Below, in pieces: positions 1-14,505 of a stretch of DNA of 32,000 bases. Every line of letters starts with the position of its first letter. Position 1 is the first letter of the stretch. The stretch lies in the NCBI GenBank assembly GCA_001695645.1, contig LVZN01000001.1, positions 1 to 32,000 of the forward strand, written 5' to 3'. The translations under genes and the position numbers were made by a program. The notes beneath the pieces are model-generated. The model did no database searches. It was not told the origin of the DNA and saw only the letters and a program-made list of their open reading frames with translations. This DNA is from Erysipelotrichaceae bacterium MTC7. Its GTDB lineage: Bacteria > Bacillota_I > Bacilli_A > Erysipelotrichales > Erysipelotrichaceae.

Positions 1-1100
1 AAGAAGGATTTGAGGTCCTTATGGATCGCTACAATGAGCTCAAAGAAAACAGTGGTCACGAAGTGATGTTTATCTTTGAATCTACCGGGGTGTATCACAA
101 AGTGATTCAACACTTCTTGGAAGAAAAAATCGCAAGAAATTTATTATGATTAGTCCATTACAGTCTGCAAAGGTGCGCAAGTTGGATCTAAGAGCTGCAA
201 AAACTGATAAATTGGATCCAATGTATATCGCTAAAGCGTACTATATGTTGGATATCGATATAAGTGTCAAGAAGCAAGAGGTGTATGATGAGTTGATGCA
301 GTTGGATCGTTATTATGAAGCGCAGTTAACCTCACTAACAAAGGCTAAAGTACATTATCGAGAGAGTCTCGATTTAGTATTCCCTAGACTTGATGAACAT
401 TTCGATGTATATGATCCTTGTGTTGTATTGATGATCCAAAAGTATAAGCATCCTGAGAACATACAGCGCAAAGAAGTGAAAACTGTGATTGACTATTTAA
501 CTAAAAAGAATTCACATAGAAAAGCATATTTGCAGTCATTTGCAATCACTTTTATTGATTACTGCAAGGATTGTATGAGTGGATGTAGCATGAATGATAT
601 AGCAATCGACATTCTTTTAGGTCATCTAGACAGTGTTGAACATTTTCAACAGAAAGTTGATTACACATTCAAACGAATGAGAGAACTTGCTAGAAGCCTT
701 AAGCAATACGAGCAATTAATAAGTATCCCAGGAATTGGTGAAATCTTAGCAACAAGACTGATTGCAGAGATTGGTGATATGGATCGATTTGATTCCCATA
801 AACAGCTAATTGCATATGCTGGCATAGAACCTATTATCTATCAATCTGGAAAGAAGGATGGAATGCATTATCGGATGAGTAAAAAAGGAAATAAAATACT
901 GCGCAAGTTATTATATTTAGCCATTACTTGTAGTCTTAGAAGCAAAACACAAGATAACAAAATCAAAGAATATTACCAAAAGAAAAGACAACAAGATAAC
1001 CCAATGTATTATCTCGCTGTCTATTTCGCCTGCGCCAATAAATTACTACGAATAATTTATGGCATGTATAAATCGAATTCGATTTATCAATAACCAGGTC
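1..1100 (+). mobile_element. IS110-family insertion sequence. The 5' end is cut by the window edge and the 3' boundary is approximate.
   Basis: The transposase reads in two frames. Frame 3 (3..149) gives EGFEVLMDRYNELKENSGHEVMFIFESTGVYHKVIQHFLEEK, the DEDD N-terminal domain with an ESTGxYH motif. Frame 2 (146..1093) gives the Transposase_20-type C-terminal domain (IPGIGEILATRLIAEIGDMDRFDSHKQLIAYAGIEPIIYQSGKK...SKKGNKILRKLLY). Confidence 0.8.
146..1093 (+). pseudogene. IS110-family transposase, the part downstream of the frameshift. The N-terminal part lies in another frame at 3..149.
   Basis: ORF track plus manual translation of 3..149. Adding one A to the A6 run at 124..129 gives a continuous ...HFLEEKNRKKFIMISPLQSAK... 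reading frame, which matches the usual IS110 layout (YH..L....G..V.VVNPL). Confidence 0.7.
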
Positions 1101-1117
1101 CATTATAACACTTTTCT

Positions 1118-1138
1118 AAAAAAACTGACATAGTTCAG
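1118..1138. terminator. Weak hairpin with flanking A and T runs. Possibly a bidirectional terminator between the IS110 element and hsdR.
   Basis: ctgacatagttcag (CTGA/TCAG stem) is preceded by aaaaaaa and followed by gattttt. The stem is only 4-5 bp. Confidence 0.3.
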
Positions 1139-1215
1139 GATTTTTAGTGTGATGAAATATCATAGAATGATTTTTTAATATTATACTTGATTTTTATTAA
1201 CTAATTTTTTGTTGG

Positions 1216-4200
1216 TCAGTCTTTTTTATTCTTTTCTCCATAGGTAGCAGAGTCTTCTGCAACCATACTTAACTCCGGTTCTGAAATCTTATAAATGAAC
1301 TTCTTTTTTAATCGTTCATACAGGACTGTGCCGATTGACTCCATAACCTGTTTCATCATGCCTGGGTCAGAGAACATACGAACAAAAAAATCATCATTTT
1401 GCTCATATCTGCTGGCAGCCATTTCAGGGAAGTCCTTCTCAAATAGCAACATGAATGTTTTGCGGTCGTTATTCTTAGCATAGCTTTGCCACTTTTCTTC
1501 AGATGCATAATCATTTTCAAGTTGTAATAGCACCTTGTCCATTTCTGTAAAGTTTGTTCCGTACTTCTCATTAATTTTATCAATCAGAACAGTAAGAGGG
1601 TCTTTCTTCTTTTCACGTCTTCCGGATTCTCCTGTAATAGAGTGAAATCCTTCCTCTGTTCCTTCAAGACCTATATTACCTTCGAAATCTTTTTCAAGAC
1701 GATAGTATTCGAGCAACACCTTGTCATCAACATCGACTTTTTCTCCACCACCTTTTGGCAACATGGTAGCAAGAAATTTAGCATACACGCTGAATTTATG
1801 TATATCCTTATCAAACAATCTGCATACCTGCGTAACGAATGCATAGATTCGATTAAAGCGTTGTATCGTTCCTTTGAAAATATCCTTCTTGTCATCGGCT
1901 AAAGCATTATATCTGTCTAACGCAGGTCTAATAGTACCTTGTAATTTACCAAGGTCTCCAGCCACCTGTGTTTTAGACGCATAGAATATTTCTGCAAATT
2001 TATCTATCTCCATTTGCTGATATACACGGAAACCATCCAGTGTGTTTTTCAAGTCATAAATCACATTCGGATTTGTTTCTTCTTCAAGAACAGTTTCTTC
2101 ATAATATGGTTCAAATGACTTCTTGATATCCTCTGCAGAGTTTACGAAATCAAGGACGAAGGTATCCTGCTTTCCACGCATTGTTCGGTTAAGTCTGGAA
2201 AGAGTCTGTACAGCTTTAACACCAGACAATTTCTTATCAACAAACATCGTATGCAATAAAGGTTCATCAAATCCGGTTTGATATTTTTCCGCAACAATCA
2301 GCATACCAAATTCATCGGTGTGGAATGCTTCTGGCAGAGCCTTTTCTTTTATAGTTTCTCCGACATTGTTTTTATTTAATTTTTCCTCGGTGTACTTTTC
2401 TCCATCGTCATCGACTTCGCCTGAAAATGCAACCAGAACATCAAGGTCGGTATAACCTTTTTCCTGTATCTGACGCTTGAATTCGTGTAAATATCGTACT
2501 GCGTGTAAACGAGACGGTGTAACAATCATTGCTTTTGCTTTACCACCGATTTTATGCATCGTCACATTTCTGAACTGTTCAAGCATAACAGAAGTCTTTT
2601 GTGAAATATTATGTGGATGCAAGGATTCATAATTAAGAATGGCTTTTACCCCTGCTGCTGTGTCGAGTTCTGGATTATCAGCAATGCTCTTGGTAATCTT
2701 ATAATACATTTTATAGGTCATATAATTTTGCAATACATCAAGAATAAAACGTTCCTCAATTGCCTGTCTCATAGAATAAATGTGGAACGGATGATACTTA
2801 CCTTCTTTATCACGGCAACCAAACATCTGCAGGGTTTTATCCTTTGGTGTAGCCGTAAAAGCAAAGAAGGATAAGTTGTCATGTATCCCTTGTGCTGCCA
2901 GTTCGTCAAGAAGTTTGTCCTCATCATCCTTACGCCTGCTTTCTTCTTCATATTCCATTTCGGCATATTCTTCAAGTATCTTTTCAGTGTCAGCCAATGC
3001 ACGTTTTAATTTTTTAGCTGCATCTCCTGTTTGAGAAGAGTGTGCTTCATCAACGATAATGGCGAAACGCTTATTGCCGGATTTCACTTCTTTATAGATA
3101 ACAGGGAATTTTTGCAATGTAGTAATGATAATACCTGTTCCAGCTTCAATGGCATCTTTCAATTGCTGTGCGTTTTTATCAATCTTCTGAACAACACCTT
3201 CCACATGGTCAAACTGATACACGGTATTTTGTAACTGGCTATCAAGCACTCGTCTGTCTGTAACAATAATTACTGACTGGAATATCTTCTCATCAGAATC
3301 ATCGTGCAAACCACTTAAACGGTGTGCTAACCATGCAATAGAATTAGACTTTCCGGAGCCTGCACTATGTTGAATTAAGTAATTATTTCCTGCACCATTT
3401 TCTTTCACATCTGCTAATAATTTTGTGACTACATCAAGCTGATGGTAACGAGGGAATATCATGCGTTCTTCCTTTACTTCTCCCGTTTTATCATCCTTGA
3501 TTACCTGTAAATGCAGATATTTATGTACAATTTCAAGTAGACGGTCTTTGCGCAAAACACTCTTCCATAGATACTCTGTGTCATAACCATCATCGTTAAT
3601 CGGGTTGCCTTTTCCACCGACTTTTCCCGCACCATTACTGCCTTGATTGAATGGTAAGAAATATGTTTTACCACCTTGTAAGCGTGTGGTCATATATACA
3701 TTAGTAAGGTCAACTGCAAAATGCACAAGCACTCGGTTCTTAAACTCAAAGATTGCATCATTGCCTGCACGGTCAAATTTATACTGGGCAATAGCATTTG
3801 CCGTATCCTGCCCTGTAAATTGGCACTTCAGTTCCATAGACACAACAGGAATACCATTGATAAAAAGCACAATATCAATACTGTTTTCATTCTGCAAAGA
3901 ATAGTGCAACTGCCTTGTGCAGTGCATAATGTTGGAATCATATTGCTTTACAATCGTTTCATTGATGCTCGTTTCCGGTTTCCAAAATACCGCACGGAAT
4001 TTAATGCCACGGTCTGTAAAACCTTGACGCAGAACCTTTAAAAGACCCACCATTTTTACTTCACGGCAGAAACGGTCTATGATTTGTTTTTCGGAATCTG
4101 AACCATATATTTTCACATATCGTTCCCATTGCTTAGGCTGGCTCTCCTTGATAAATGAAACAAATGTCTCCTTATCAAGAGCAAGCTTACGGTCAAAGTT

Positions 4201-4293
4201 TTTAGGATTGCCTTTTGTATAGCCTCCTTCAGTACAAAGGAAGCTTTCAATATCTTCTTCAAATCGCTTTTCTTTTACGTCAAAATCTGATAT
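1216..4293 (-). CDS. hsdR: Type I restriction enzyme R subunit (HsdR), SF2 helicase/nuclease
   Basis: Walker A (QHSAGSGKSNS) and DEAH box (IVDEAHSSQ), with HsdR-typical N-terminal nuclease-region similarity (IDIVLFINGIPVVSMELK). The ORF track starts at a GTG at 4116. The same frame stays open up to the TGA at 4329..4327 and encodes a typical HsdR N-terminus (SDFDVKEKRFEEDIESFLCTEGGYTKGNPKNFDRKLALDKETFVSFIKESQPKQWERY). The start was therefore placed at ATA 4293..4291, which is uncertain. Confidence 0.88.
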   Translation of the reverse strand: MSDFDVKEKRFEEDIESFLCTEGGYTKGNPKNFDRKLALDKETFVSFIKESQPKQWERYVKIYGSDSEKQIIDRFCREVKMVGLLKVLRQGFTDRGIKFRAVFWKPETSINETIVKQYDSNIMHCTRQLHYSLQNENSIDIVLFINGIPVVSMELKCQFTGQDTANAIAQYKFDRAGNDAIFEFKNRVLVHFAVDLTNVYMTTRLQGGKTYFLPFNQGSNGAGKVGGKGNPINDDGYDTEYLWKSVLRKDRLLEIVHKYLHLQVIKDDKTGEVKEERMIFPRYHQLDVVTKLLADVKENGAGNNYLIQHSAGSGKSNSIAWLAHRLSGLHDDSDEKIFQSVIIVTDRRVLDSQLQNTVYQFDHVEGVVQKIDKNAQQLKDAIEAGTGIIITTLQKFPVIYKEVKSGNKRFAIIVDEAHSSQTGDAAKKLKRALADTEKILEEYAEMEYEEESRRKDDEDKLLDELAAQGIHDNLSFFAFTATPKDKTLQMFGCRDKEGKYHPFHIYSMRQAIEERFILDVLQNYMTYKMYYKITKSIADNPELDTAAGVKAILNYESLHPHNISQKTSVMLEQFRNVTMHKIGGKAKAMIVTPSRLHAVRYLHEFKRQIQEKGYTDLDVLVAFSGEVDDDGEKYTEEKLNKNNVGETIKEKALPEAFHTDEFGMLIVAEKYQTGFDEPLLHTMFVDKKLSGVKAVQTLSRLNRTMRGKQDTFVLDFVNSAEDIKKSFEPYYEETVLEEETNPNVIYDLKNTLDGFRVYQQMEIDKFAEIFYASKTQVAGDLGKLQGTIRPALDRYNALADDKKDIFKGTIQRFNRIYAFVTQVCRLFDKDIHKFSVYAKFLATMLPKGGGEKVDVDDKVLLEYYRLEKDFEGNIGLEGTEEGFHSITGESGRREKKKDPLTVLIDKINEKYGTNFTEMDKVLLQLENDYASEEKWQSYAKNNDRKTFMLLFEKDFPEMAASRYEQNDDFFVRMFSDPGMMKQVMESIGTVLYERLKKKFIYKISEPELSMVAEDSATYGEKNKKD

Positions 4294-4685
4294 TAGATAT
4301 TCACCTCCGTTAGTATTTTTTGAATCTCACCATAATAGCAGTCCCTATTTTTAGGATACTCTGTAATAGTGAATCCAAACTTTTCGTAAAAATGATGAAG
4401 TCTTTCCTTGTGGTCTGTGTCAATGATGGATAAATTTCCATGGATTGTCGTATATCCATACTCTGTAGCATATGATAATAGCTTGTCCATCATAATAGAA
4501 CCGTAACCTTTATTGTAATCACGATTTTTCATATGAACGATATCACCAATCAAAATGGATTCATCTGATTCAATAACACACTGCATTTTAGATGTCATCT
4601 TGCTCTTAACAAAGCATTTTACCATCAGCAGCATATCAGATTTATCGATTCTAACCTCTGGCGATTGTGACTTATGAAAGAACAT
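4293..4685 (-). CDS. Small GNAT-family N-acetyltransferase (130 aa) embedded in the hsd operon
   Basis: Acetyl-CoA motif A-like segment (DIVHMKNRDYNKGYGSIMMDKLLSYATEYGYTTI) and C-terminal FYEKFGF. A GGAGGTG RBS lies inside the last hsdS codons, 6 nt before the ATG. Its own last codons (ACG GAG GTG AAT ATC TAA) supply the RBS for hsdR. Confidence 0.75.
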   Translation of the reverse strand: MFFHKSQSPEVRIDKSDMLLMVKCFVKSKMTSKMQCVIESDESILIGDIVHMKNRDYNKGYGSIMMDKLLSYATEYGYTTIHGNLSIIDTDHKERLHHFYEKFGFTITEYPKNRDCYYGEIQKILTEVNI

Positions 4686-4688
4686 GGC

Positions 4689-5927
4689 TCACACCTCCAT
4701 CTTTCCGGTAACAACCTCGTAAATCAGAGATTTTTTGTATTCGGTCAATTTGTCTATTGCTGATTGTTTACGACTTATAATAATATCTAATTCTTGACAC
4801 AGTTCCGTGATTCTATCAACCGCTTGTATTTGCAGTTCCATTGATGGAATATTGATTGATATTTGTGACAGCAAATCTTGATTTATATTGCTAATATTAG
4901 AACCCTGACTATACTTCTCAAGTTGTTTTCTGAAATAAGGGCTTCTAAAAAAGTATAACAAATACATATCATTTATGATGTCTGTTCTATTATTGCGAAA
5001 TCTGATGCAGAAGCCACTGTAAGTAAGTGGAAAATTTATATTTTCGACCATAATACTACGTCCAACAAGTTCTTTGCTCCCATTAGATCGTACGAAAACT
5101 ATATCACCACTTCTTAACAAATAATCTTCTGCAATATCATTATCAATAATTATATCCGAGAACATTTCTTCACTATTTAAAATGAAGTGGTCTTTAAAAT
5201 CACCAACTCCAAGAAATTTTATTCGTTTACTGCTCGTATTACTATTGAAATTTAAGCCGTTTTTCATTGTAGCGATGTATCCCAAATGACATCTATCTCC
5301 ATCAACATCTACAATAGCTTCATTTATTGCAGATAGCTTGTATTCCTTCAGCTTTTCAATCATAGCCTGCTCACGCTCGATGATGGCGTCGATTTTAGAG
5401 CACTTGCTGTCGAGGTAGTCGGCAATACGGTGTTGCAAAATAGAAGGTGCTACTGGTAATGCCACTGTATTTAATTTTGACATTTGAATACGCATTCGTA
5501 TTTCCATAATGCCATTTCCATAACCTTTTAACTTGCTTTGTAATTCCTTGGTTTGAAACAGATAATTATAATATCTAATATCATCATTTTCGTTTCGTGG
5601 AAAGAGCATATAATACACCGGACTAACACACCCATAATAATCAGATAAGGCAACAGACCCAATAATTACATTCATGCTGTTTAAAACTATATCACCTTGA
5701 TGTGCGAGTTTGTATCCGGTTAAATCATCTTTTGATTTATTTCCAATCTCTCCTTTATCGCTGTAGGGAATAACACCTCTATCATTTGTCAGCGATAAAA
5801 TAAAATCTGTTTTCACTGGATTATTTGATTCGTTTCTTTCACAGAGAACCGCTTTAAGTCTTTTGACAGTCCAACCAGATGGAATTACACCAATCCAATC
5901 TATTCCACTTTCTTTCATATCAATCAT
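4689..5927 (-). CDS. hsdS: Type I restriction-modification specificity subunit (HsdS), with two target-recognition domains
   Basis: Two variable halves are separated by conserved coiled-coil spacers (LPVAPSILQHRIADYLDSKCSKIDAIIEREQAMIEKLKEYK and IPSMELQIQAVDRITELCQELDIIISRKQSAIDKLTEYKKSLIYEVVTGK). It overlaps the hsdM stop by 4 nt. Confidence 0.9.
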   Translation of the reverse strand: MIDMKESGIDWIGVIPSGWTVKRLKAVLCERNESNNPVKTDFILSLTNDRGVIPYSDKGEIGNKSKDDLTGYKLAHQGDIVLNSMNVIIGSVALSDYYGCVSPVYYMLFPRNENDDIRYYNYLFQTKELQSKLKGYGNGIMEIRMRIQMSKLNTVALPVAPSILQHRIADYLDSKCSKIDAIIEREQAMIEKLKEYKLSAINEAIVDVDGDRCHLGYIATMKNGLNFNSNTSSKRIKFLGVGDFKDHFILNSEEMFSDIIIDNDIAEDYLLRSGDIVFVRSNGSKELVGRSIMVENINFPLTYSGFCIRFRNNRTDIINDMYLLYFFRSPYFRKQLEKYSQGSNISNINQDLLSQISINIPSMELQIQAVDRITELCQELDIIISRKQSAIDKLTEYKKSLIYEVVTGKMEV

Positions 5928-7654
5928 AAGCTAAACACCTCCGCCAAGGCTCCATCTAACTCAGTTTCGATATCCATAATTTCTGCCATGATTTCAGCAG
6001 AACTGCGAGGTGCTTCATATTTATAAAAATAGCGTGTGAATGGTATTTCATATCCAACCTTAGATTTGTTTTTATCAATCCAAGCATCCGGTGCGAAAGG
6101 AAGAACTTCACGCTTGAAGTATTCCGAAATATCCTCTTTCAATGGCACATTTTCTGTATCACGAAGAGAAGTGTCAGGTTGCTTTTTACCTTTCTTTAAC
6201 ACAAGTTCTCCGTTCTCGTCTTTGAGTGGACGCTCAACAGTGATTTTTGTGTAGCCAAAATCCTCCGTGTCATAAATCTGGCTGATTTCACTTGTCTTGA
6301 AATCTCCATAAATCTGCGTGATTTCATTGATTGCAGAAATAGGAATATCATTACGTTTGTTGCCTAATGTTTTTCTTCTTCTTTCATACAAATCATTAGC
6401 ATTGATAAGTTGAACTTTTCCCTCACGCATTGTGCCTGTTTTCTTGTTGGAAAGCACCCAGATATATGTTGCAATACCTGTGTTATAGAAGATGTCGTTT
6501 GGCAAAGCTATAATAGCCTCAAGCAAATCGTTCTCTAAAATATACTTTCTAATATCAGAAGGTCCACTTCCGGCATCGCCTGTGAACAGTGGAGAGCCGT
6601 TATGAATAATTGCAATACGACTACCACCCTGTGTTATATCTTTCATTTTGGAAATAGCAGTCATGAGGAACAGCATCTGTCCGTCACTTGCTGCCGGTAG
6701 TCCAGCCCCAAATCTACCTGCAAATCCAAGCTTTGCTTCTTTTTCAACTTTTGGTTTTTCGTTTTTCCATTCACGTCCAAAAGGCGGATTGGAAAGAATA
6801 TAGTCAAAGGTTTGTCCTTCGAATTGATCATCTGAAAGTGTATTACCATCTTTGATGAATTCAGCATTATTTCCCTTGATAAGCATATCTGCTTTACAGA
6901 TAGCAAAAGTCTGGTCATTTAACTCTTGTCCGAATGCCATAATTTCAGTAGAGGCATTCATCTTGTGCATATATTCCTCAGCCACAGATAGCATACCGCC
7001 GGTTCCACAGGCAGGGTCATAAATTGTCTTTGCTACGTTGTTGCCTGATAGAACATCATTATCGTCATAGAACAGAATATTAACCATAAGTTCAATAACT
7101 TCACGAGGAGTGTAATGCTGTCCTGCATCCTCATTATGTGCCTCAGAAAATCTTCTGATGATTTCTTCAAAAACATATCCCATCTCAAGATTAGAAATAA
7201 CACTTGGGTGCAGATTTGCTTTTGGAGATGTAAATTCTTTTATGACAATATAAAGGATGCCCTTATTAGCCATAGTAGTGATGTGACCATCAAACTTGAA
7301 CTTCTCAATAATATCCTGAACATTCTCAGAGAACCCGTTTAAGTAGTCACGGAAATTTGCTTCTATATTGTCCGGGTCATCAAGCAATTTGTCAAAATCA
7401 TATTTGCTTGTATTGTAAAATGCGTGACCGGATGCTTTACGCAAAAGGACATCACGCATAGGTAATGCTTTCACGCTTTCATATTTATCAAGCACAGCCC
7501 CCTTTGTATCAGCAAGAATACTATCAAAACGTTTAATAACTGTCATAGGAAGAATGACTTCTCCATATTCATGTGGCTTGTATACTCCTGTCAATTTATC
7601 TGCGATTGCCCATATAAGGGCAGCCTTTTCACTTACATTACTACTTAAGCTCAT
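5924..7654 (-). CDS. hsdM: Type I restriction-modification N6-adenine DNA methyltransferase subunit (HsdM)
   Basis: Motif I is DPACGTGGML and motif IV is NPPFG. There is an HsdM N-terminal domain (AALIWAIADKLTGVYKPHEYGEVILPMTVIKRFD). The start was moved to the second ATG (MSLSSN...) because GGAGGT sits 7 nt upstream of it. The ORF-track start is 7669. Confidence 0.92.
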   Translation of the reverse strand: MSLSSNVSEKAALIWAIADKLTGVYKPHEYGEVILPMTVIKRFDSILADTKGAVLDKYESVKALPMRDVLLRKASGHAFYNTSKYDFDKLLDDPDNIEANFRDYLNGFSENVQDIIEKFKFDGHITTMANKGILYIVIKEFTSPKANLHPSVISNLEMGYVFEEIIRRFSEAHNEDAGQHYTPREVIELMVNILFYDDNDVLSGNNVAKTIYDPACGTGGMLSVAEEYMHKMNASTEIMAFGQELNDQTFAICKADMLIKGNNAEFIKDGNTLSDDQFEGQTFDYILSNPPFGREWKNEKPKVEKEAKLGFAGRFGAGLPAASDGQMLFLMTAISKMKDITQGGSRIAIIHNGSPLFTGDAGSGPSDIRKYILENDLLEAIIALPNDIFYNTGIATYIWVLSNKKTGTMREGKVQLINANDLYERRRKTLGNKRNDIPISAINEITQIYGDFKTSEISQIYDTEDFGYTKITVERPLKDENGELVLKKGKKQPDTSLRDTENVPLKEDISEYFKREVLPFAPDAWIDKNKSKVGYEIPFTRYFYKYEAPRSSAEIMAEIMDIETELDGALAEVFSL

Positions 7655-7886
7655 AATCCGAACCTCCATTTTTTATTGTGATTTTTTCTCCATTAGGCAA
7701 TGTAAATGATTGCTCATAGGATATATTTAATTCATCAGCTATTTTAACAAGTTCTGTATCTGTGATAGTTCCTCTCTTTAGCTTCGCACTAAAGTTCTGA
7801 GGAGACTGACCAATACGCCTTGCCAATTCAGATAGGCTTATATCCATTCGTACACAAAGCACTTTAATTTGTTCTGCTGTTGTCAT
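7641..7886 (-). CDS. XRE-family helix-turn-helix protein (81 aa). It could be an RM controller-like protein or the element repressor.
   Basis: HTH_3-like segment (ISLSELARRIGQSPQNFSAKLKRGTITDTELVKIADELNIS). It is the first gene of the minus-strand operon and overlaps the hsdM start by 14 nt. Confidence 0.75.
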   Translation of the reverse strand: MTTAEQIKVLCVRMDISLSELARRIGQSPQNFSAKLKRGTITDTELVKIADELNISYEQSFTLPNGEKITIKNGGSDYELK

Positions 7887-7915
7887 ATCACACCTCCATC
7901 AAACTTCTGTGTTTT

Positions 7916-7944
7916 ATTATAAACGATTTCGTTGATAAATACAA
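7916..7944 (-). promoter_or_regulatory. Candidate sigma-A promoter for the HTH-hsdM-hsdS-GNAT-hsdR operon
   Basis: The minus strand reads TTGTAT, a 17-nt spacer, then TATAAT, about 30 nt upstream of the HTH start. The spacer contains the palindrome AACGA-TT-TCGTT (7922..7933). Confidence 0.45.
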
Positions 7945-7985
7945 TCTATTTAAAGCATTGTTTACAAAATAATTGATATTTTTTG

Positions 7986-8012
7986 AGCAGCCGACTATGG
8001 CTGCTTCTTTTT
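7986..8012 (+). terminator. GC-rich hairpin followed by a T run, with no plus-strand gene upstream
   Basis: AGCAGCC-gactat-GGCTGCT is followed by tctttttta. It lies between the divergent operons. Confidence 0.4.
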
Positions 8013-8100
8013 TATTCTTTTTTCCATATGAGGTTTAAATATCATCATTTTCTTTTGCCTGTGACTTAAGGGGTTCGATTGATTAGCATTTCTCGTTTAT

Positions 8101-8280
8101 GAATAGAAGATATTTTTTCTAAAACGTCCTTTTTTATGCGTTCTCAAGGCTATTAGGCATAAGGGAAAATATTTCTGAAAGTTGGTTCTTAAACACAGTG
8201 CAGGTGTCCTTTTACTATCAAAGGGAAAATGATTCCGTGATTTTGTTCTCGAACTGTCCTTTGGAAGATAGAGAGGGATA
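8101..8280. repeat. Three degenerate tandem units of about 60 bp (iteron-like) in the divergent intergenic region
   Basis: The units start near 8101, 8161 and 8221. Units 2 and 3 both begin AAGGGAAAAT(A/G)ATT(T/C)C(T/C)G, followed by GTTCT..AAC and then GTCCTTT. Unit 1 keeps GATATTTTTTCTAAAAC-GTCCTTTT. A further TTTTTTCTGAAATTGG copy lies at about 8395..8410. Confidence 0.55.
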
Positions 8281-8499
8281 AATAGTTTCTTCAAAGCCCG
8301 GAGAATACAATATCAATCTCCCTTAGTAAATTAGGAAGTAAAAATACTTCCGCTCAAATTGCCAGTTTATCTCCAGTGGAAAAGTGTAAGGATTATTTTT
8401 TCTGAAATTGGAAGTTTCATATCTTTCCAATACATAACCCTCAGAAGAAACAAAACTACAGGAACTGGCTACGCATAAAACAGAAGGAGGAAGAAGAAA

Positions 8500-10812
8500 A
8501 TGATTTATGACAACCTACCACAGCTAATCAAAGATACAGGTCAGTGCTGTGTTTGGAATTTAGAAAAAAGAAAAGGTCGCAATACTAAAGTGCCATATAA
8601 CCCTATCACAGGAAGGCACGCTTACGTTGATAACCCAGAAACCTTTGTAGATTTTGAAACTGCTGTAAATGCAGTCAGTAATTACAGTGGTATCGGTATT
8701 CGCGTGAATGGTCGCATTATTGCCATTGACCTTGACCACTGTATCGAAAATGGTCAACTGCTCTCGTGGTCAAAAGAAATCGTAGAGCAATTTAACAACA
8801 CCTACATCGAAATCAGTCCTAGTGTTACAGGCATTCGTATCCTTGCACTTATGCCGGAGGGCTACACCTATGATAGCAGTACCTTCTATATCAAGAAAGG
8901 CAATGTGGAAGTTTATGTTGCAGGTGCTACTAATCGCTTTGTAACACTCACAGGAAATGCATATCAACATTCTGATGTAACGGAGCAGGCTGATGCTATG
9001 CAGTGGCTACTTGATACGCATATGAAAAGAAAGCAGCCACTCAAGATGATTAATCCGAATTTAGAGCGTGACAGCTATCTTTCTGACGAGAGTGTGTTGG
9101 AAAAAGCTATGAAAGCAGCGAATGGCGAGAAGTTCAAAAAATTATGGAATGCAGACACCACAGGCTATTCCTCTCATAGCGAGGCAGATGCAGCACTCTG
9201 TTCTATGCTTGCATTCTACTGTAACGGAAATATGAAGCAAGTGGACAGGCTCTTTCGACAATCGGCACTTTATCGTGACAAATGGGACGAACAGCGTGGT
9301 GCAGACACTTATGGCAATCTCACGATTATGAAAGCAGTCGGCAATATGAAGAATTTTTATCAGCCAATCAAAATCAATCCTAATACGGATTTTAACGATG
9401 AACTGCAAAGACTCGTCACGCACAATCCATCGGACACGCTGAAATATCCGTGGACGGATATTGGTGCAGGAAAACTGTTTGCTGACTTCTACAAAGAGGT
9501 TCTCCGTTATGTGCCGGAACGCAGGAATTGGTTTTGCTACGAAGATGGTGCTTGGTCTATGGATACAGGTGGACTAAAAGCAATGCGATATTGCATGGAA
9601 CTTGCAAATTTTCTCCATCTGTATGCACTGGAAATTAAGGACGAGCATCAGAGAAAAAGTTACATGGATTATTCCAAGCGATGGCAGACGCATGGCTATC
9701 GTGTAAATGTTCTAAAGGACGCACAGGTGCATCATCCTATTTCCTTTTTGGAATTTGATAAAGACCCATACATCTTCAATTGTAGTAATGGCACTCTACA
9801 CCTTGATAGTGGGAAGTTTACGGAGCATTGCAGTTCTGACCTGTTGACGAAAATATCCGCTGTTGCTTACGACCCTTTGGCTCACAGTGAGCGTTGGGAC
9901 AATTTCATAACAGAAATTATGAGTAATGATCAAGACAGAGCCTTGTTCCTGCAAAAGGTTCTGGGTTATGCCCTTAGTGGTGATACCCGTCATGAATACA
10001 TGAGTATCCTCTATGGTGCTACCACCAGAAATGGCAAAGGTACGCTCTGTGAAAGTGTACTGAAGGTATTCGGCAGTTATGGCTGCACAGCAAGACCTGA
10101 AACCATTGCTCAGAAGAACAGCACCAACAGTTCTCAGCCAAGTGAAGATGTTGCCCGCCTTGCAGGAGTACGCTTTGTAAATATCGCAGAACCGGGAAAA
10201 AGTCTGGTATTGAATGCAGCTTTAGTAAAAAACATGACAGGCAATGACACTATCAATGCTCGTTTTCTCCATGAGAACAGTTTTGATTTTTCACCACAGT
10301 TCAAGCTGTACATCAACACCAATTATCTGCCTGTGGTAAACGATATGACGGTATTTGCCAGTGGACGAGTTATCATCATTCCTTTTGAGCGTCATTTTGA
10401 TGAATCGGAGCAGGACAAAGGCTTAAAGCGTGAGTTCATAAAACCACAGGTGCAATCAGCAATCCTAAATTGGCTGCTGAAAGGCTATGAGCAGCTACAA
10501 CTTCATGGACTGCATATGCCTCAGTCGGTCATCAATGCCACAGGTCAGTATGAGCATGACAGCAATAAAACTTTACTGTTTATTGAGGATTGCTTGGGGG
10601 AAGGTGCGGATTATGAAGAACGTACCTCTCAGGTCTATAACCGTTACAAATCGTGGTGCATGGAAAACGGACAATACGCTGAAAGCATGAAGAACTTCAA
10701 GCAGAGCTTGTCTGCTGTGATGGAAGTCAAGCGTAAGCGTCCAAAGTCCGGTGGAGAGAAAACCACAATGGTCGTTGGTTATCGGTTGATATCTGATTTT
10801 CTCCGAGGATAA
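8500..10812 (+). CDS. Replication protein: N-terminal prim-pol type primase fused to a P4/D5-family SF3 helicase (phage/plasmid primase family)
   Basis: Catalytic acidic motif (IAIDLDHC) and YIEISPSVTGIRIL. Primase C-terminal motif (SHSEADAALCSMLAFYCNGNMKQVDRLFRQSALYRDKWDEQRGADTYG). Walker A is GATTRNGKGT. An AAGGAGG RBS lies 9 nt upstream of the ATG. Confidence 0.88.
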   Translation: MIYDNLPQLIKDTGQCCVWNLEKRKGRNTKVPYNPITGRHAYVDNPETFVDFETAVNAVSNYSGIGIRVNGRIIAIDLDHCIENGQLLSWSKEIVEQFNNTYIEISPSVTGIRILALMPEGYTYDSSTFYIKKGNVEVYVAGATNRFVTLTGNAYQHSDVTEQADAMQWLLDTHMKRKQPLKMINPNLERDSYLSDESVLEKAMKAANGEKFKKLWNADTTGYSSHSEADAALCSMLAFYCNGNMKQVDRLFRQSALYRDKWDEQRGADTYGNLTIMKAVGNMKNFYQPIKINPNTDFNDELQRLVTHNPSDTLKYPWTDIGAGKLFADFYKEVLRYVPERRNWFCYEDGAWSMDTGGLKAMRYCMELANFLHLYALEIKDEHQRKSYMDYSKRWQTHGYRVNVLKDAQVHHPISFLEFDKDPYIFNCSNGTLHLDSGKFTEHCSSDLLTKISAVAYDPLAHSERWDNFITEIMSNDQDRALFLQKVLGYALSGDTRHEYMSILYGATTRNGKGTLCESVLKVFGSYGCTARPETIAQKNSTNSSQPSEDVARLAGVRFVNIAEPGKSLVLNAALVKNMTGNDTINARFLHENSFDFSPQFKLYINTNYLPVVNDMTVFASGRVIIIPFERHFDESEQDKGLKREFIKPQVQSAILNWLLKGYEQLQLHGLHMPQSVINATGQYEHDSNKTLLFIEDCLGEGADYEERTSQVYNRYKSWCMENGQYAESMKNFKQSLSAVMEVKRKRPKSGGEKTTMVVGYRLISDFLRG

Positions 10813-11067
10813 ACACAGGGGGCAGTATGGGGCAAGTAATATAGGTATTTCTCTATAGGAAATCAATATTTTCATATAACCATTTTTTCTTGCCACAATA
10901 TGCCCCACCACTGTGACCATTGGGCAACTGTGTAAAAGGTAGCGTTTTACGACCTTAGCATTTACTTGAAAGGGGTGATGCTTATGATTGCATAACTTTG
11001 GCTCAAAAATGAGCATAACTCGCTTTCCAATTATGGAAAGCAACAACAACGAAAGGAGGCGTTTGCC

Positions 11068-11277
11068 ATGATGAACAAAGAAGAATTTGAAAAGTATTTC
11101 AAGCTTCACAACAAGATCGTGCTTTATACCAAGGATAATATTCCTATTACATTCTCAAAGGAATATCATTTTCATTTTAGCGGAGGTCATTATGAATTTG
11201 ATATTGCAGATTGTGAAGACCTTGCAGACTTCTGCAAAAAGCGTGGTCTTTATCTGAAACCAAATAATGTTCAGTAA
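11068..11277 (+). CDS. Hypothetical small protein (69 aa)
   Basis: A GGAGG RBS lies 8 nt upstream of the ATG. The ORF is clean and non-overlapping, sitting between the primase and capsid genes. No motif was recognised. Confidence 0.5.
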   Translation: MMNKEEFEKYFKLHNKIVLYTKDNIPITFSKEYHFHFSGGHYEFDIADCEDLADFCKKRGLYLKPNNVQ

Positions 11278-11500
11278 TAAGCCTAGGTAGGGGCGGTCAG
11301 AATCTCTACCACTATTATAGCGGAAAACGGGGCAAGGCTCTCACGCACAAAAACGCAAATTCAAAGGGGTAATATACCCCACCTGCTAATGCTTGAAAAT
11401 GGCGTATTTATTGGCTTTAGAACCTTGCAATCCGTTTGAAATCGTTTGAAAAAACTATATTTATTCAAAAAAAATCAAACATTTAAGGAGGATTTTAATT

Positions 11501-12439
11501 ATGAATGAAAACACAAAAATTACTCTCCATACAGGAGACCCAGAATACGATAAAAACTTTTGGAACCTTGCACGAGGAACAGGTGGATACGAAGGATCGC
11601 TTGCTATGTGTACTGATCGAGCAACAGGTGGTTATCCACTTCCTGCTGTGGCTCAGAATAAGTTTTCCGAAGCACTGAACAAGGAAAGTCTATTCAGACG
11701 CATTGGTACTACTATGAATGCTTTAAATAATGGATATCGTATCTTTGCTAAAGACTGTGAAGATATTGCTATGTGGGTGCCAGAAGGTGGTGCTATTCCA
11801 ATCTATGAAGGCATTGAAGATTTCACGGAGCATAGATTAGAAAGCTATAAACTTGCTGCCTTTGTAAAACTCGATGAGGACTTTATCCACGATGTTAGTT
11901 TTAACATGGAGAAATATCTGATTGAGCGTTTAGCAATGAACTTCTCTAAGGGAGAAGAAAACGGATTTATCAATGGAACAAGCAATGCAGAACCAACCGG
12001 TATTCTTGCAGAAACAGGTGGTGCTGATATTGGTGTGACAACTACTGCCCTAACCTTTGATGATATTACAAAATTATTCTTCTCCGTTAAGCCTGAATAC
12101 CGAACAAATGGTAGTTGGATGATGAATGATGAAACAGCACTTTACCTTCGTAGCCTTAAAGACAATGATAGTAACTTTTTATGGCGAGGAAGTACCGATA
12201 CGCTTATGGGAAAACCTGTGATTATTTCTAATGAGATGCCATCCATTAGTACAGGTGCTAAAGCTGTAGCCTTCGGAGATTTTTCTTATTACTGGGTAGT
12301 CAATAGAAAGCTTATCTCTGTAAGAACTCTAAAAGAGAAATTTGCACTTCACGATCAGATTGGTTATCTTGCGTTTGAATTTGTAGATGGTCGCTTAATA
12401 AGATCAGAAGCCATCAAAGTTATTCAGATTTCTGAATAA
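11501..12439 (+). CDS. HK97-family phage major capsid protein (312 aa) lacking an N-terminal delta/scaffolding domain
   Basis: Phage_capsid-type motifs: NFWNLARGTGG...ATGGYPLP near the N-terminus, GFINGTSNAEPTGIL, LMGKPVIISNEMP, and AFGDFSYYWVVNRKLISVRTLKEKFALHDQIGYLAFEFVDGRL. A TAAGGAGG RBS is present. Confidence 0.85.
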   Translation: MNENTKITLHTGDPEYDKNFWNLARGTGGYEGSLAMCTDRATGGYPLPAVAQNKFSEALNKESLFRRIGTTMNALNNGYRIFAKDCEDIAMWVPEGGAIPIYEGIEDFTEHRLESYKLAAFVKLDEDFIHDVSFNMEKYLIERLAMNFSKGEENGFINGTSNAEPTGILAETGGADIGVTTTALTFDDITKLFFSVKPEYRTNGSWMMNDETALYLRSLKDNDSNFLWRGSTDTLMGKPVIISNEMPSISTGAKAVAFGDFSYYWVVNRKLISVRTLKEKFALHDQIGYLAFEFVDGRLIRSEAIKVIQISE

Positions 12440-12461
12440 CTAATCATTACCTAATCTACCG

Positions 12462-12689
12462 ATGGAGAAAGGTGCATACAAAATGAATAATGAAATTAAC
12501 AAAAGCCGTATCACCGAAACTTCCATCGGTGGAACGGTGTACATTGTGGAATCTCTGGTTAGTGATAAAGCCAAAGAAACTGCCTATACCAAGGTCAAAA
12601 GGCTCATTATAAGCAATTCCAAAGACCATATAAAGTTATCAGAAACGACACAATTATTATCGCCAAAAGACTACACTTCAGCGAAATAG
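12462..12689 (+). CDS. TnpW-like small transposon-encoded protein. The true start is probably the ATG at 12483.
   Basis: The segment RITETSIGGTVYIVESLVSDKAKETAYTKVKRLII resembles the TnpW family found in Tn4451-type clostridial elements. This is recalled from memory and was not searched. The gene lies directly upstream of the serine recombinase. Confidence 0.5.
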   Translation: MEKGAYKMNNEINKSRITETSIGGTVYIVESLVSDKAKETAYTKVKRLIISNSKDHIKLSETTQLLSPKDYTSAK

Positions 12690-12710
12690 TACGGTAATAT
12701 GTCATACTGA

Positions 12711-14460
<1,750 letters not shown>

Positions 14461-14505
14461 CAAGGGAATAAAATCCCTAAGACGCACCCTCTAAGTGCGC
14501 TTTCT

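Follow-up and report, generated by a model that had tools for sequence, protein, structure and literature searches.

What a lone phage capsid gene does for the mobile element that carries it is the question raised by positions 11501-12439 of a 32,000-nt stretch of contig LVZN01000001.1 from Erysipelotrichaceae bacterium MTC7 (the window hereafter), which encode a major capsid protein (MCP) homologue of the HK97 family. An earlier note, made from the sequence alone, had offered three answers: that the protein parasitises the assembly machinery of a helper phage, that it forms an encapsulin-like compartment, or that it is a decoy interfering with helper assembly. Of these options the first appears best supported by the conserved element family in which the gene occurs, by the Heliusvirales-type affinity of the nearest phage MCPs and by a linked phage motif. 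We regard it as moderately probable that an integrative phage satellite of approximately 13 kb employs the protein to hijack capsids, and would do so with the MCP of its helper and a copied packaging motif.

The 312-amino-acid (aa) product is a bona fide HK97-fold capsid protein without a delta domain. Its gene starts at an ATG preceded, 8 nt upstream, by an AAGGAGG ribosome-binding site. Pfam PF05065 (Phage_capsid) matches residues 43-309 over profile positions 1-279 of 280 (E = 2.8e-64; bit score 217.6, cut-off 24.2), bearing out the full Phage_capsid signature that the earlier note had read in the protein. The NCBIfam model TIGR01554 (major_cap_HK97; E = 1.1e-68; bit score 232.1, cut-off 27.5) aligns residues 15-309 only with profile positions 80-384 of 385, so that positions 1-79, which correspond to the delta domain, are left unmatched and an N-terminal domain of some 80-90 aa is absent. 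The FWNLARG motif begins at residue 20 and only 19 residues precede FWN, as the same note had observed. An AlphaFold2 monomer model based on an 80-sequence alignment of diverse relatives reached a predicted local distance difference test score (pLDDT) of 90.8 and a predicted TM-score (pTM) of 0.86, and replaced an earlier run on 36 close homologues with a pLDDT of 60.9. In this model, the long helix at residues 136-158 can be read as the spine helix and the beta-rich core as the P and A domains. Foldseek, in the structural comparison that the note had suggested, assigned a probability of 1.0 to capsid chains of RcGTA, HK97, T5, EcCI2 and SaPIbov5, the best PDB matches comprising RcGTA (6TB9, E = 7e-21), the capsid-forming phage-inducible chromosomal island (cf-PICI) EcCI2 (9GYI), Mycofy1, T5, HK97 and SaPIbov5 (7RWZ). 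The top 50 PDB and top 50 BFVD matches are all phage, gene transfer agent or satellite capsids, with no encapsulin among them.

No other morphogenesis gene accompanies that of the MCP: portal, protease and scaffold genes, which had been reported as lacking nearby, are found nowhere in the 32-kb window, and neither are terminase genes. Such isolation would be expected of a decaying prophage remnant or of a 5'-truncated gene with a fortuitous start codon, both of which the earlier note had named as outcomes that would refute its reading. A homologue search of 5.8 billion proteins yielded 1557 relatives, and the best 120 of these (54-91% identical) are almost all 308-320 aa long. Likewise, in a library of clusters at 50% identity nearly all full-length matches among the roughly 45 best clusters (37-52% identical) measure 296-328 aa, and no protein of about 400 aa ranks above 39% identity. 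Approximately 30 distinct delta-less relatives, 35-94% identical, share the same length and the same start, and a 36-sequence alignment reveals a common start with Y16, F20, W21, R25 and G26 invariant. The ratio of nonsynonymous to synonymous substitution rates (dN/dS), computed against the two closest DNA relatives, is 0.14-0.18 for the MCP, 0.08-0.11 for the neighbouring primase and 0.06-0.08 for the recombinase, indicating that the capsid gene is under purifying selection. Together with the intact open reading frame (ORF), the good ribosome-binding site and the monophyly of the clade, these results refute both the remnant and the truncation, to which we leave practically no probability, and the short form and its start codon are instead conserved across the family.

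On a neighbour-joining tree of 30 distinct delta-less proteins and the mature domains of 50 full-length ones, the two groups split in 100 of 100 bootstraps. The delta-less clade appears to be old, because identity within it falls to 35%, and the conservation of the short form marks it as ancestral in a large family. On the phage side, the nearest MCPs of the tree are 30-52% identical, and those closest to the window protein, at 36-39%, belong to Heliusvirales gut phages and to Erysipelothrix phage phi1605. They are 397-408 aa long and carry a coiled-coil extension of 77 to about 95 aa ahead of the FWN motif, whose equivalent in two of them (PV036447 XTK84668, 399 aa, and phi1605 ASD51100, 402 aa) is SFWNAMR or AFWNAMR. 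Their genes lie directly after those for a portal and a ClpP-like protease, in terL-portal-ClpP-MCP modules.

The delta-less genes occur in a different setting. A set of 39 delta-less MCP loci was gathered from metagenomes, metagenome-assembled genomes (MAGs) and IMG/VR; many are metagenomic fragments and some are duplicates, and counts are given per distinct element where possible. A contig scan with single-protein patterns returned only two loci, since the patterns were too specific. All 39 loci display, in whole or in part, a shared layout in which a variable left arm, usually encoding restriction-modification (R-M), runs leftward behind a small Cro/C1-type helix-turn-helix (HTH) gene, while a primase-polymerase/D5-type helicase gene, one to three small ORFs, the MCP gene, a TnpW-family gene and a large serine recombinase gene, usually with the DUF4368 domain typical of TnpX, follow one another rightward. 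At least one of the primase, small ORF, TnpW and serine recombinase genes stands beside the MCP gene in every one of the 39, and none of them contains terL, portal or protease genes, whereas almost all of about 58 loci with full-length MCPs present the opposite pattern, with a terL/portal/protease context. No portal, protease, head-tail connector or scaffold gene was found in any delta-less element. Named sources of delta-less MCPs include Oscillospiraceae, Candidatus Avispirillum, Phascolarctobacterium, Metalachnospira, Christensenellaceae and Anaerovoracaceae. Of the genes that the earlier note called transposon-like, only those for TnpW and the TnpX-like recombinase deserve the term; replication module and layout resemble those of satellites. 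The note had recorded neither the R-M cargo nor the packaging-site-like motif described below.

This setting also bears on the second of the three proposals, a nanocompartment of encapsulin type, exapted for the benefit of host or element. In its favour, the HK97-fold shell protein stands alone and lacks a scaffold, and Family 3 encapsulins are also annotated with PF05065. In contrast to encapsulins, however, the neighbours of the MCP gene are those of a mobile element: primase, TnpW and recombinase are conserved beside it, no cargo-type enzyme is, and the gene is found only inside an element inserted at varied sites. The encapsulin reading is further contradicted by the composition of the two lists of 50 structural matches and by the linkage of the gene to a phage packaging-region motif (below), and neither Linocin_M18 nor any other encapsulin family of Pfam matches the MCP. 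We consider this proposal unsupported and very improbable.

The linked motif emerged from a blastn search of the 688-bp non-coding stretch 5' of the MCP gene against 50,697 phage records. A conserved non-coding segment of about 95 nt, which contains the hairpin GGGGTAATATACCCC at 11366-11380, matches four Heliusvirales phages at 74-77% identity (E = 2e-8 to 6e-8), as well as MT838964, a 4.7-kb GenBank 'Bacteriophage sp.' record that is itself another member of the delta-less element family. In the phages, the motif lies between the genes for an HNH endonuclease (phrog_144) and the small terminase subunit, terS (phrog_83), just downstream of a transcriptional regulator (phrog_36). Among 11 phage copies checked, nine occupy this HNH-terS interval, no HNH gene being shown for the other two because the locus begins too near the motif or, in Javan191, because none is annotated; terS or a terS-sized gene is directly 3' of the motif in all 11. 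Beyond the four blastn matches, six IMG/VR phage loci have terS directly after the motif, with an upstream HNH ORF detectable in four. Terrisporobacter phage TPDSL_ph1 carries the motif in the HNH-terS position (L109 3001-3094; L numbers denote individual loci), and Streptococcus Javan prophages match the phage version of the motif directly upstream of a terS-sized gene (Javan191, L108 3001-3092; Javan102/105/108/112). Phages of Streptococcus, Terrisporobacter, Ruminococcus and Oscillospirales thus have in common a site of about 95 nt, 75-80% identical and immediately 5' of terS, which is unusually widespread for phage non-coding DNA.

Of 30 distinct elements, 28 contain the motif according to a profile search, mostly less than 1 kb from the MCP gene. 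It either precedes the gene in the same orientation, as in the window and roughly half of the elements, or directly follows it as an inverted copy. In at least eight distinct elements the sole copy is the downstream inverted one, and in five (L009, L018, L020, L023 and L025) two inverted copies flank the MCP gene, which may record the inversion or duplication events behind both placements. Two other identities of the motif were examined and rejected. It is not a small ORF, although phage records annotate hypothetical proteins of 30-43 aa there, since single-nucleotide indels distinguish the copies and a TAG occupies the would-be start in the window; nor is it a structured RNA, RNAalifold giving -1.26 kcal/mol and almost no covariation on 36 copies. 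No Rfam family matched at the motif at E <= 1. Because it is non-coding, without an Rfam family and without a conserved RNA fold, the motif behaves, as far as its conservation indicates, as a DNA site recognised by a protein.

In HK97-like phages with HNH-dependent packaging, such as HK97 (gp74), phi12 and phiSLT, the cos site is located in the HNH-terS interval, and the motif is thus a putative cos (packaging) site. One of the elements lacking it, L036 (IMGVR_UViG_3300045591_000246), encodes its own terS at 9080-9637, directly upstream of the delta-less MCP gene and 55% identical to a Heliusvirales terS. Because this motif-less element encodes a terS, the family appears to comprise, like the PICIs, a terS type and a cos type.

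The motif could alternatively be a helper-responsive late-transcription element, for instance a phage late-activator site, that times expression of the MCP, with the element packaged by other means or not at all. Its location would suit this role: in the phages it heads the terS-led block, just downstream of the phrog_36 regulator, it precedes the MCP gene, co-oriented with it, both in the window and in roughly half of the elements, and in Javan191 no HNH gene separates it from the region upstream. The elements whose only copy is downstream and inverted, however, could not use it to drive the MCP gene, the phages have a separate gap of 100-130 nt between the regulator and HNH genes that is available for a late promoter, and promoter-like matches in the region are no commoner than in shuffled sequence (a scan for sigma-70 promoters and terminators near the motif returned counts equal to those of shuffled controls). 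We therefore hold a transcriptional role in place of a packaging role to be unlikely.

Taken as a whole, the anatomy of the element matches that of a satellite, with an integrase, a divergent regulator, a replication module of its own, defence cargo, no further virion genes and two devices that would target the head module of a particular helper. According to the reading that we favour, the element would integrate by means of its TnpX-like serine recombinase, replicate with its own primase-helicase and carry R-M cargo. When a Heliusvirales-type helper, with an HK97-like head module and HNH-terS-terL packaging, infects the cell or is induced, the delta-less MCP, unable to scaffold itself, would co-assemble with the helper MCP by borrowing the delta domains of the latter, and this co-assembly would bias shells toward a size fitting about 13 kb. 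The helper terminase would then read the 95-nt motif as its own cos site and package the element DNA, the lowered helper yield being a side effect. Loss of the delta domain would leave the MCP inert without a helper and independent of protease cleavage. A shift to small shells is proposed because genomes of related phages measure 49-80 kb, as against at least 13.3 kb for the element, a monomer of which is too short for a helper-sized head. Helper induction, recognition of the motif as cos, co-assembly with size redirection and transfer in phage particles are steps that we infer.

The third proposal of the earlier note, the decoy, shares part of this mechanism. The delta-less MCP would be solely a dominant-negative poison of Heliusvirales-type assembly, that is, a defence gene on an R-M island that is not itself packaged, and would thereby shield the host population from these phages. 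A subunit devoid of a scaffolding domain is a plausible assembly poison, the cargo arm usually is a defence (R-M) system, neither terminal repeats nor circular forms were seen among 19 contigs, and the SaPIbov5 capsid homologue Ccm likewise interferes with its helper. What interference by itself leaves unexplained is the linkage of the MCP gene to the motif from upstream of phage terS in 28 of 30 elements, the terS of L036 and the retention of a replication module; moreover, the MCP matches no PADLOC model and hence corresponds to no catalogued defence gene. Redirection and interference are inseparable by sequence alone, Ccm doing both in one protein, and we judge interference without packaging to be improbable.

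Conversely, the delta-less MCP might form small shells alone, much as encapsulins assemble with no scaffold, the helper providing portal, terminase and tails, in what would amount to a minimal cf-PICI and not to a mixed shell of the Ccm kind. The fold is predicted with confidence to be complete, the EcCI2 MCP (9GYI) is among its closest solved structures, and the age and diversity of the clade, down to 35% identity, suggest an evolution largely independent of any one helper MCP. Yet MCPs of the HK97 type do not assemble unless a delta domain or a scaffold protein is supplied, the incorporation of portals normally depends on a scaffold, and no element encodes a portal, protease, connector or scaffold, whereas cf-PICIs possess a full head module. 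We accordingly regard autonomous shell formation as improbable.

Hijacking of helper shells thus remains our preferred reading, and several observations weigh against it. HK97 gp5 cannot assemble without its delta domain, and Ccm, the sole analogue characterised so far, retains an 87-aa delta domain whereas the window MCP has none. The identity of the motif as cos is positional only, with no mapped termini at the motif in any phage record, and the paired inverted copies flanking the MCP gene in five elements are awkward for simple cos-to-cos packaging. Neither terminal direct repeats nor circularity was detected in the 19 contigs (15 from IMG/VR, one from GenBank and three from metagenomes), and MT838964 may plausibly come from a virome preparation of virus-like particles, given its origin in Mexico and the scaffold minimum of 4 kb, a link that could not be verified. 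There is no helper prophage in the 32-kb window. Insertion takes place at many sites through a serine recombinase, unlike in classical PICIs, and the left end of the element was not found, window positions 1-8500 containing no direct or inverted copy of the right end.

The broader proposal is that of a widespread and ancient satellite family of gut Bacillota (Oscillospiraceae, Lachnospiraceae-like, Christensenellales and Phascolarctobacterium) that would parasitise Heliusvirales phages through a cos-region copy and a delta-less capsid paralogue and ferry R-M or other defence cargo, the window element being its first member to be recognised; here we find the balance of the evidence to be even. 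The features of the window copy are collected in Table 1.

Table 1. Features of the MCP-bearing element in the window
Feature	Position	Strand	Basis or remark
Type I R-M cargo arm	1216..7669	-	Pfam and PADLOC matches; membership in the element probable
hsdR	1216-4116	-	in Type I R-M arm
GNAT-like ORF	4293-4685	-	in Type I R-M arm
hsdS	4689-5927	-	in Type I R-M arm
hsdM	5924-7669	-	in Type I R-M arm; overlaps HTH gene
Cro/C1-type HTH regulator, 81 aa	7641..7886	-	PF13443 HTH_26, E = 1.6e-9; divergent from primase; overlaps hsdM start
HTH/primase divergent intergenic control region	7887..8499	.	gene layout; presumed promoters, possibly an origin
Replication protein, 770 aa: primase-polymerase (NrS-1 HBD) + D5_N + P4/D5-type helicase	8500..10812	+	
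Conserved 69-aa ORF 5' of the 95-nt motif	11068..11277	+	75-84% identity in L001 and L008, dN/dS 0.13-0.18
Conserved 95-nt non-coding motif, cos-like	11285..11382	+	blastn against phages; 119 nt 5' of MCP gene
Delta-less HK97-family MCP homologue, 312 aa	11501..12439	+	PF05065, TIGR01554, AlphaFold2 model, dN/dS, conserved length and N-terminus
TnpW-family small protein	12462..12689	+	PF14202, E = 3.8e-13; between MCP and recombinase in most related elements
TnpX-type large serine recombinase (Resolvase + Recombinase + Zn ribbon + DUF4368)	12723..14432	+	Pfam, phrog_95
Element right end (...CAAGGGAATAAAATCCCTAAGACGCACCCTCTAA); chromosome junction near 14494	14433..14494	+	homology endpoint with L001, L008 and L105

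The replication protein, which is syntenic in related elements, matches Pfam PF22763, PF08706, PF03288 and PF19263, TIGR01613 and phrog_1829 (E = 2e-159), and the recombinase matches PF14287 (DUF4368, E = 3e-25) and the phrog_95 integrase family (E = 3e-100). The HTH gene is found at the equivalent position in L001, L004, L016 and L017. Within the intergenic region between the HTH and primase genes, 55 nt (8014-8068) resemble unannotated DNA of Terrisporobacter phage TPDSL_ph1 (17529-17583), which also carries the motif, at 84% identity (E = 1e-4), a resemblance that may mark a second shared regulatory or origin site or may be due to chance. Lysis, tail and other structural genes are lacking in the element apart from the MCP gene, and the ORFs scanned between 1216 and 14494 contain no relaxase-type domain.

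The small ORF ahead of the motif has no match in Pfam, PHROG, NCBIfam or PADLOC. In most members of the family, a protein of about 102 aa with two CxxC pairs abuts the MCP start instead (L004 9678-9986, L013 9693-10001, L016 9677-9988; compare L001 9010-9550); this Zn-ribbon-like protein, which matches no family and may be a partner of the capsid protein, is absent from the window and from L008, where only the 69-aa ORF is retained. The upstream ORF was also considered as a split-off delta domain or scaffold and discarded as such, the 102-aa ORF of the relatives being a CxxC...CxxC Zn ribbon and the 69-aa ORF of the window being neither a coiled coil nor a member of any matched family.

Related elements have different R-M systems at the position that the Type I R-M genes occupy in the window, and these genes are thus probably cargo of the element, which would then measure at least 13.3 kb (1216-14494). 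At one chromosomal site, elements that are otherwise near-identical differ in cargo, with a Type IIG-like methylase/nuclease exchanged against three ORFs without known function (L006 versus L004, L005 and L007), and in L105 a protein of 1345 aa (117-5092) takes the place of the cargo arm. From these comparisons, the left arm acts as a hotspot at which cargo, probably related to defence, is exchanged.

The conserved core extends approximately from 7940, where DNA homology with L008 begins, to 14494, homology with L001, L008 and L105 stopping at 14489-14494, and the right end reads ...CCCTAAGACGCACCCTCTAA. A metagenome scan with the 23-mer of the right end retrieved six more copies and no circular junction; together with the window, these copies have five different chromosomal flanks. 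The right junction (14483-14499 in the window; also L001 around 12953-12985, L105 and L107) falls inside a terminator-like hairpin, in which the last bases of the element (CGCACCC...) pair with the host flank (..GTGCG, GGGTGG or AGAGG) ahead of a T-run. Where independent insertions are visible, the recombinase seems to target sequences resembling intrinsic terminators, the stem of which would be rebuilt by the end of the element. A wobble-tolerant pattern derived from the right-flank gene gave 0 matches to an empty insertion site in metagenomes. On the left, a short-word blast of the arm against eight related loci returned matches at chance level only. At 1-1093, an IS110-family transposase fragment (PF02371 and the C-terminal portion of PF01548) extends past the left edge of the window and is apparently interrupted, the listed ORF beginning at 146 and the first 75 or so profile positions being absent. 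Lying just outside hsdR, this fragment may mask the left end of the element. Beyond 14.5 kb, the window is ordinary chromosome, with genes for teichoic-acid synthesis, ABC transporters, a two-component system and RNase R. In an Anaerovoracaceae MAG (L016 11148-20939, L017 9538-19479), the element recombinase gene is truncated; next to it lie another serine recombinase gene, on the other strand, and phage tail genes, including a TMP_3 tape measure, and a prophage appears to have integrated into the recombinase gene of the satellite.

Heliusvirales-type phages are very widespread in the human gut. If the favoured reading is true, satellites of this major phage group would constitute a new route for the movement of defence systems among gut Clostridia, and capsid piracy may need just one scaffold-less capsid paralogue and about 95 nt of copied phage DNA. 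The entry of a delta-less HK97 subunit into shells would then be a new solution to capsid piracy, and would focus attention on the recruitment of HK97-fold subunits into shells and on the true role of the delta domain. Virus-prediction pipelines file these elements as viral contigs (23 in IMG/VR), so that their recognition would improve catalogues of the gut virome, and the motif upstream of terS offers a handle for finding packaging sites and helper-satellite pairs computationally. The literature searched contains no description of a family of delta-less MCP elements, which does not prove novelty, and none of satellites of Heliusvirales-type phages. Lone MCP homologues are already known in satellites (Ccm and PICI-like tycheposons), and this kind of system is therefore not new. 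What would be new, as far as the comparisons indicate, is a delta-less capsid paralogue in a deep clade of its own, the association with a TnpX-like recombinase and TnpW, and presumed helpers of Heliusvirales type.

Among known systems, SaPIbov5 offers the closest parallels. This island, some 14 kb in size, contains both the cos site of phi12 and phiSLT, its helpers, and the gene for the MCP homologue Ccm, a 355-aa protein with a delta domain at residues 1-87 that is cleaved off; Ccm fills the pentamers of small T=4 shells otherwise made of helper MCP and lowers helper yield (PMC5052747, PMC8569155). Like SaPIbov5 and SaPIbov4, the present element is a small, integrative, self-replicating unit that encodes a single MCP homologue and no other head genes, and it carries, close to the capsid gene, a putative copy of the non-coding packaging region (here a candidate cos site) of helpers with HNH-terS-terL modules and HK97-like heads. 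There is, however, no orthology with Ccm: identity is about 14% in the Foldseek alignment to the procapsid chains of 7RWZ, and Ccm is absent from the matches of a sequence search of solved structures with the MCP at E <= 0.001. SaPIbov5 furthermore relies on a tyrosine integrase at a fixed att site, as opposed to a TnpX-like serine recombinase and TnpW acting at varied sites; the hosts here are gut Clostridia and Negativicutes, the presumed helpers are of Heliusvirales type, and the function is an inferred one.

The PICI-like tycheposons of Prochlorococcus, with a lone MCP or terS, have been proposed to hijack phage capsids (bioRxiv 10.1101/2020.12.28.424599). They too are integrative and small, encode a primase or helicase, and have one predicted MCP or terS gene only, the latter as in L036. 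Their hosts differ and their hallmark genes are unrelated, no shared packaging-site motif has been reported for them, and the PICI-like ones were never seen with cargo (bioRxiv 10.1101/2020.12.28.424599), whereas the delta-less-MCP elements carry R-M systems. With PICIs at large the element shares the divergent arrangement of HTH gene and replication operon; its own primase-helicase, a size of at least 13.3 kb, the lack of lysis and structural genes besides the MCP, and a packaging determinant predicted from the motif would be compatible with that class. PICIs differ in having a tyrosine integrase with a specific att site, whereas the HTH-distal end of the present element is occupied by a large serine recombinase gene. 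The cf-PICIs are likewise satellites with an HK97-fold MCP of their own, that of EcCI2 (9GYI) being among the closest solved structures, but in them the MCP is part of an entire head module, with protease, portal, connectors and terminase, whereas here it stands alone. With P4 Sid, SaPI CpmA/CpmB and SaPIpT1028 Rcm the element would share the proposed outcome, small capsids that exclude the helper genome; those effectors are external or internal scaffolds unrelated to the MCP, whereas here the effector would be an MCP paralogue. The MCPs of Heliusvirales-type phages themselves have in common with the delta-less proteins the mature-domain family and the FWN..R motif at the boundary of delta domain and N-arm, and are distinguished by their coiled-coil delta domain and their portal and ClpP-like protease neighbours.

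Lastly, Tn4451 and Tn4453 share with the element a large serine recombinase with DUF4368, an adjacent TnpW-family gene and varied insertion sites. The element has no Mob/relaxase (TnpZ), TnpV or TnpY, and contains instead a primase-helicase, an MCP and a motif of the phage packaging region, a replacement of the Mob functions that points to mobilisation mediated by phages rather than by conjugation.

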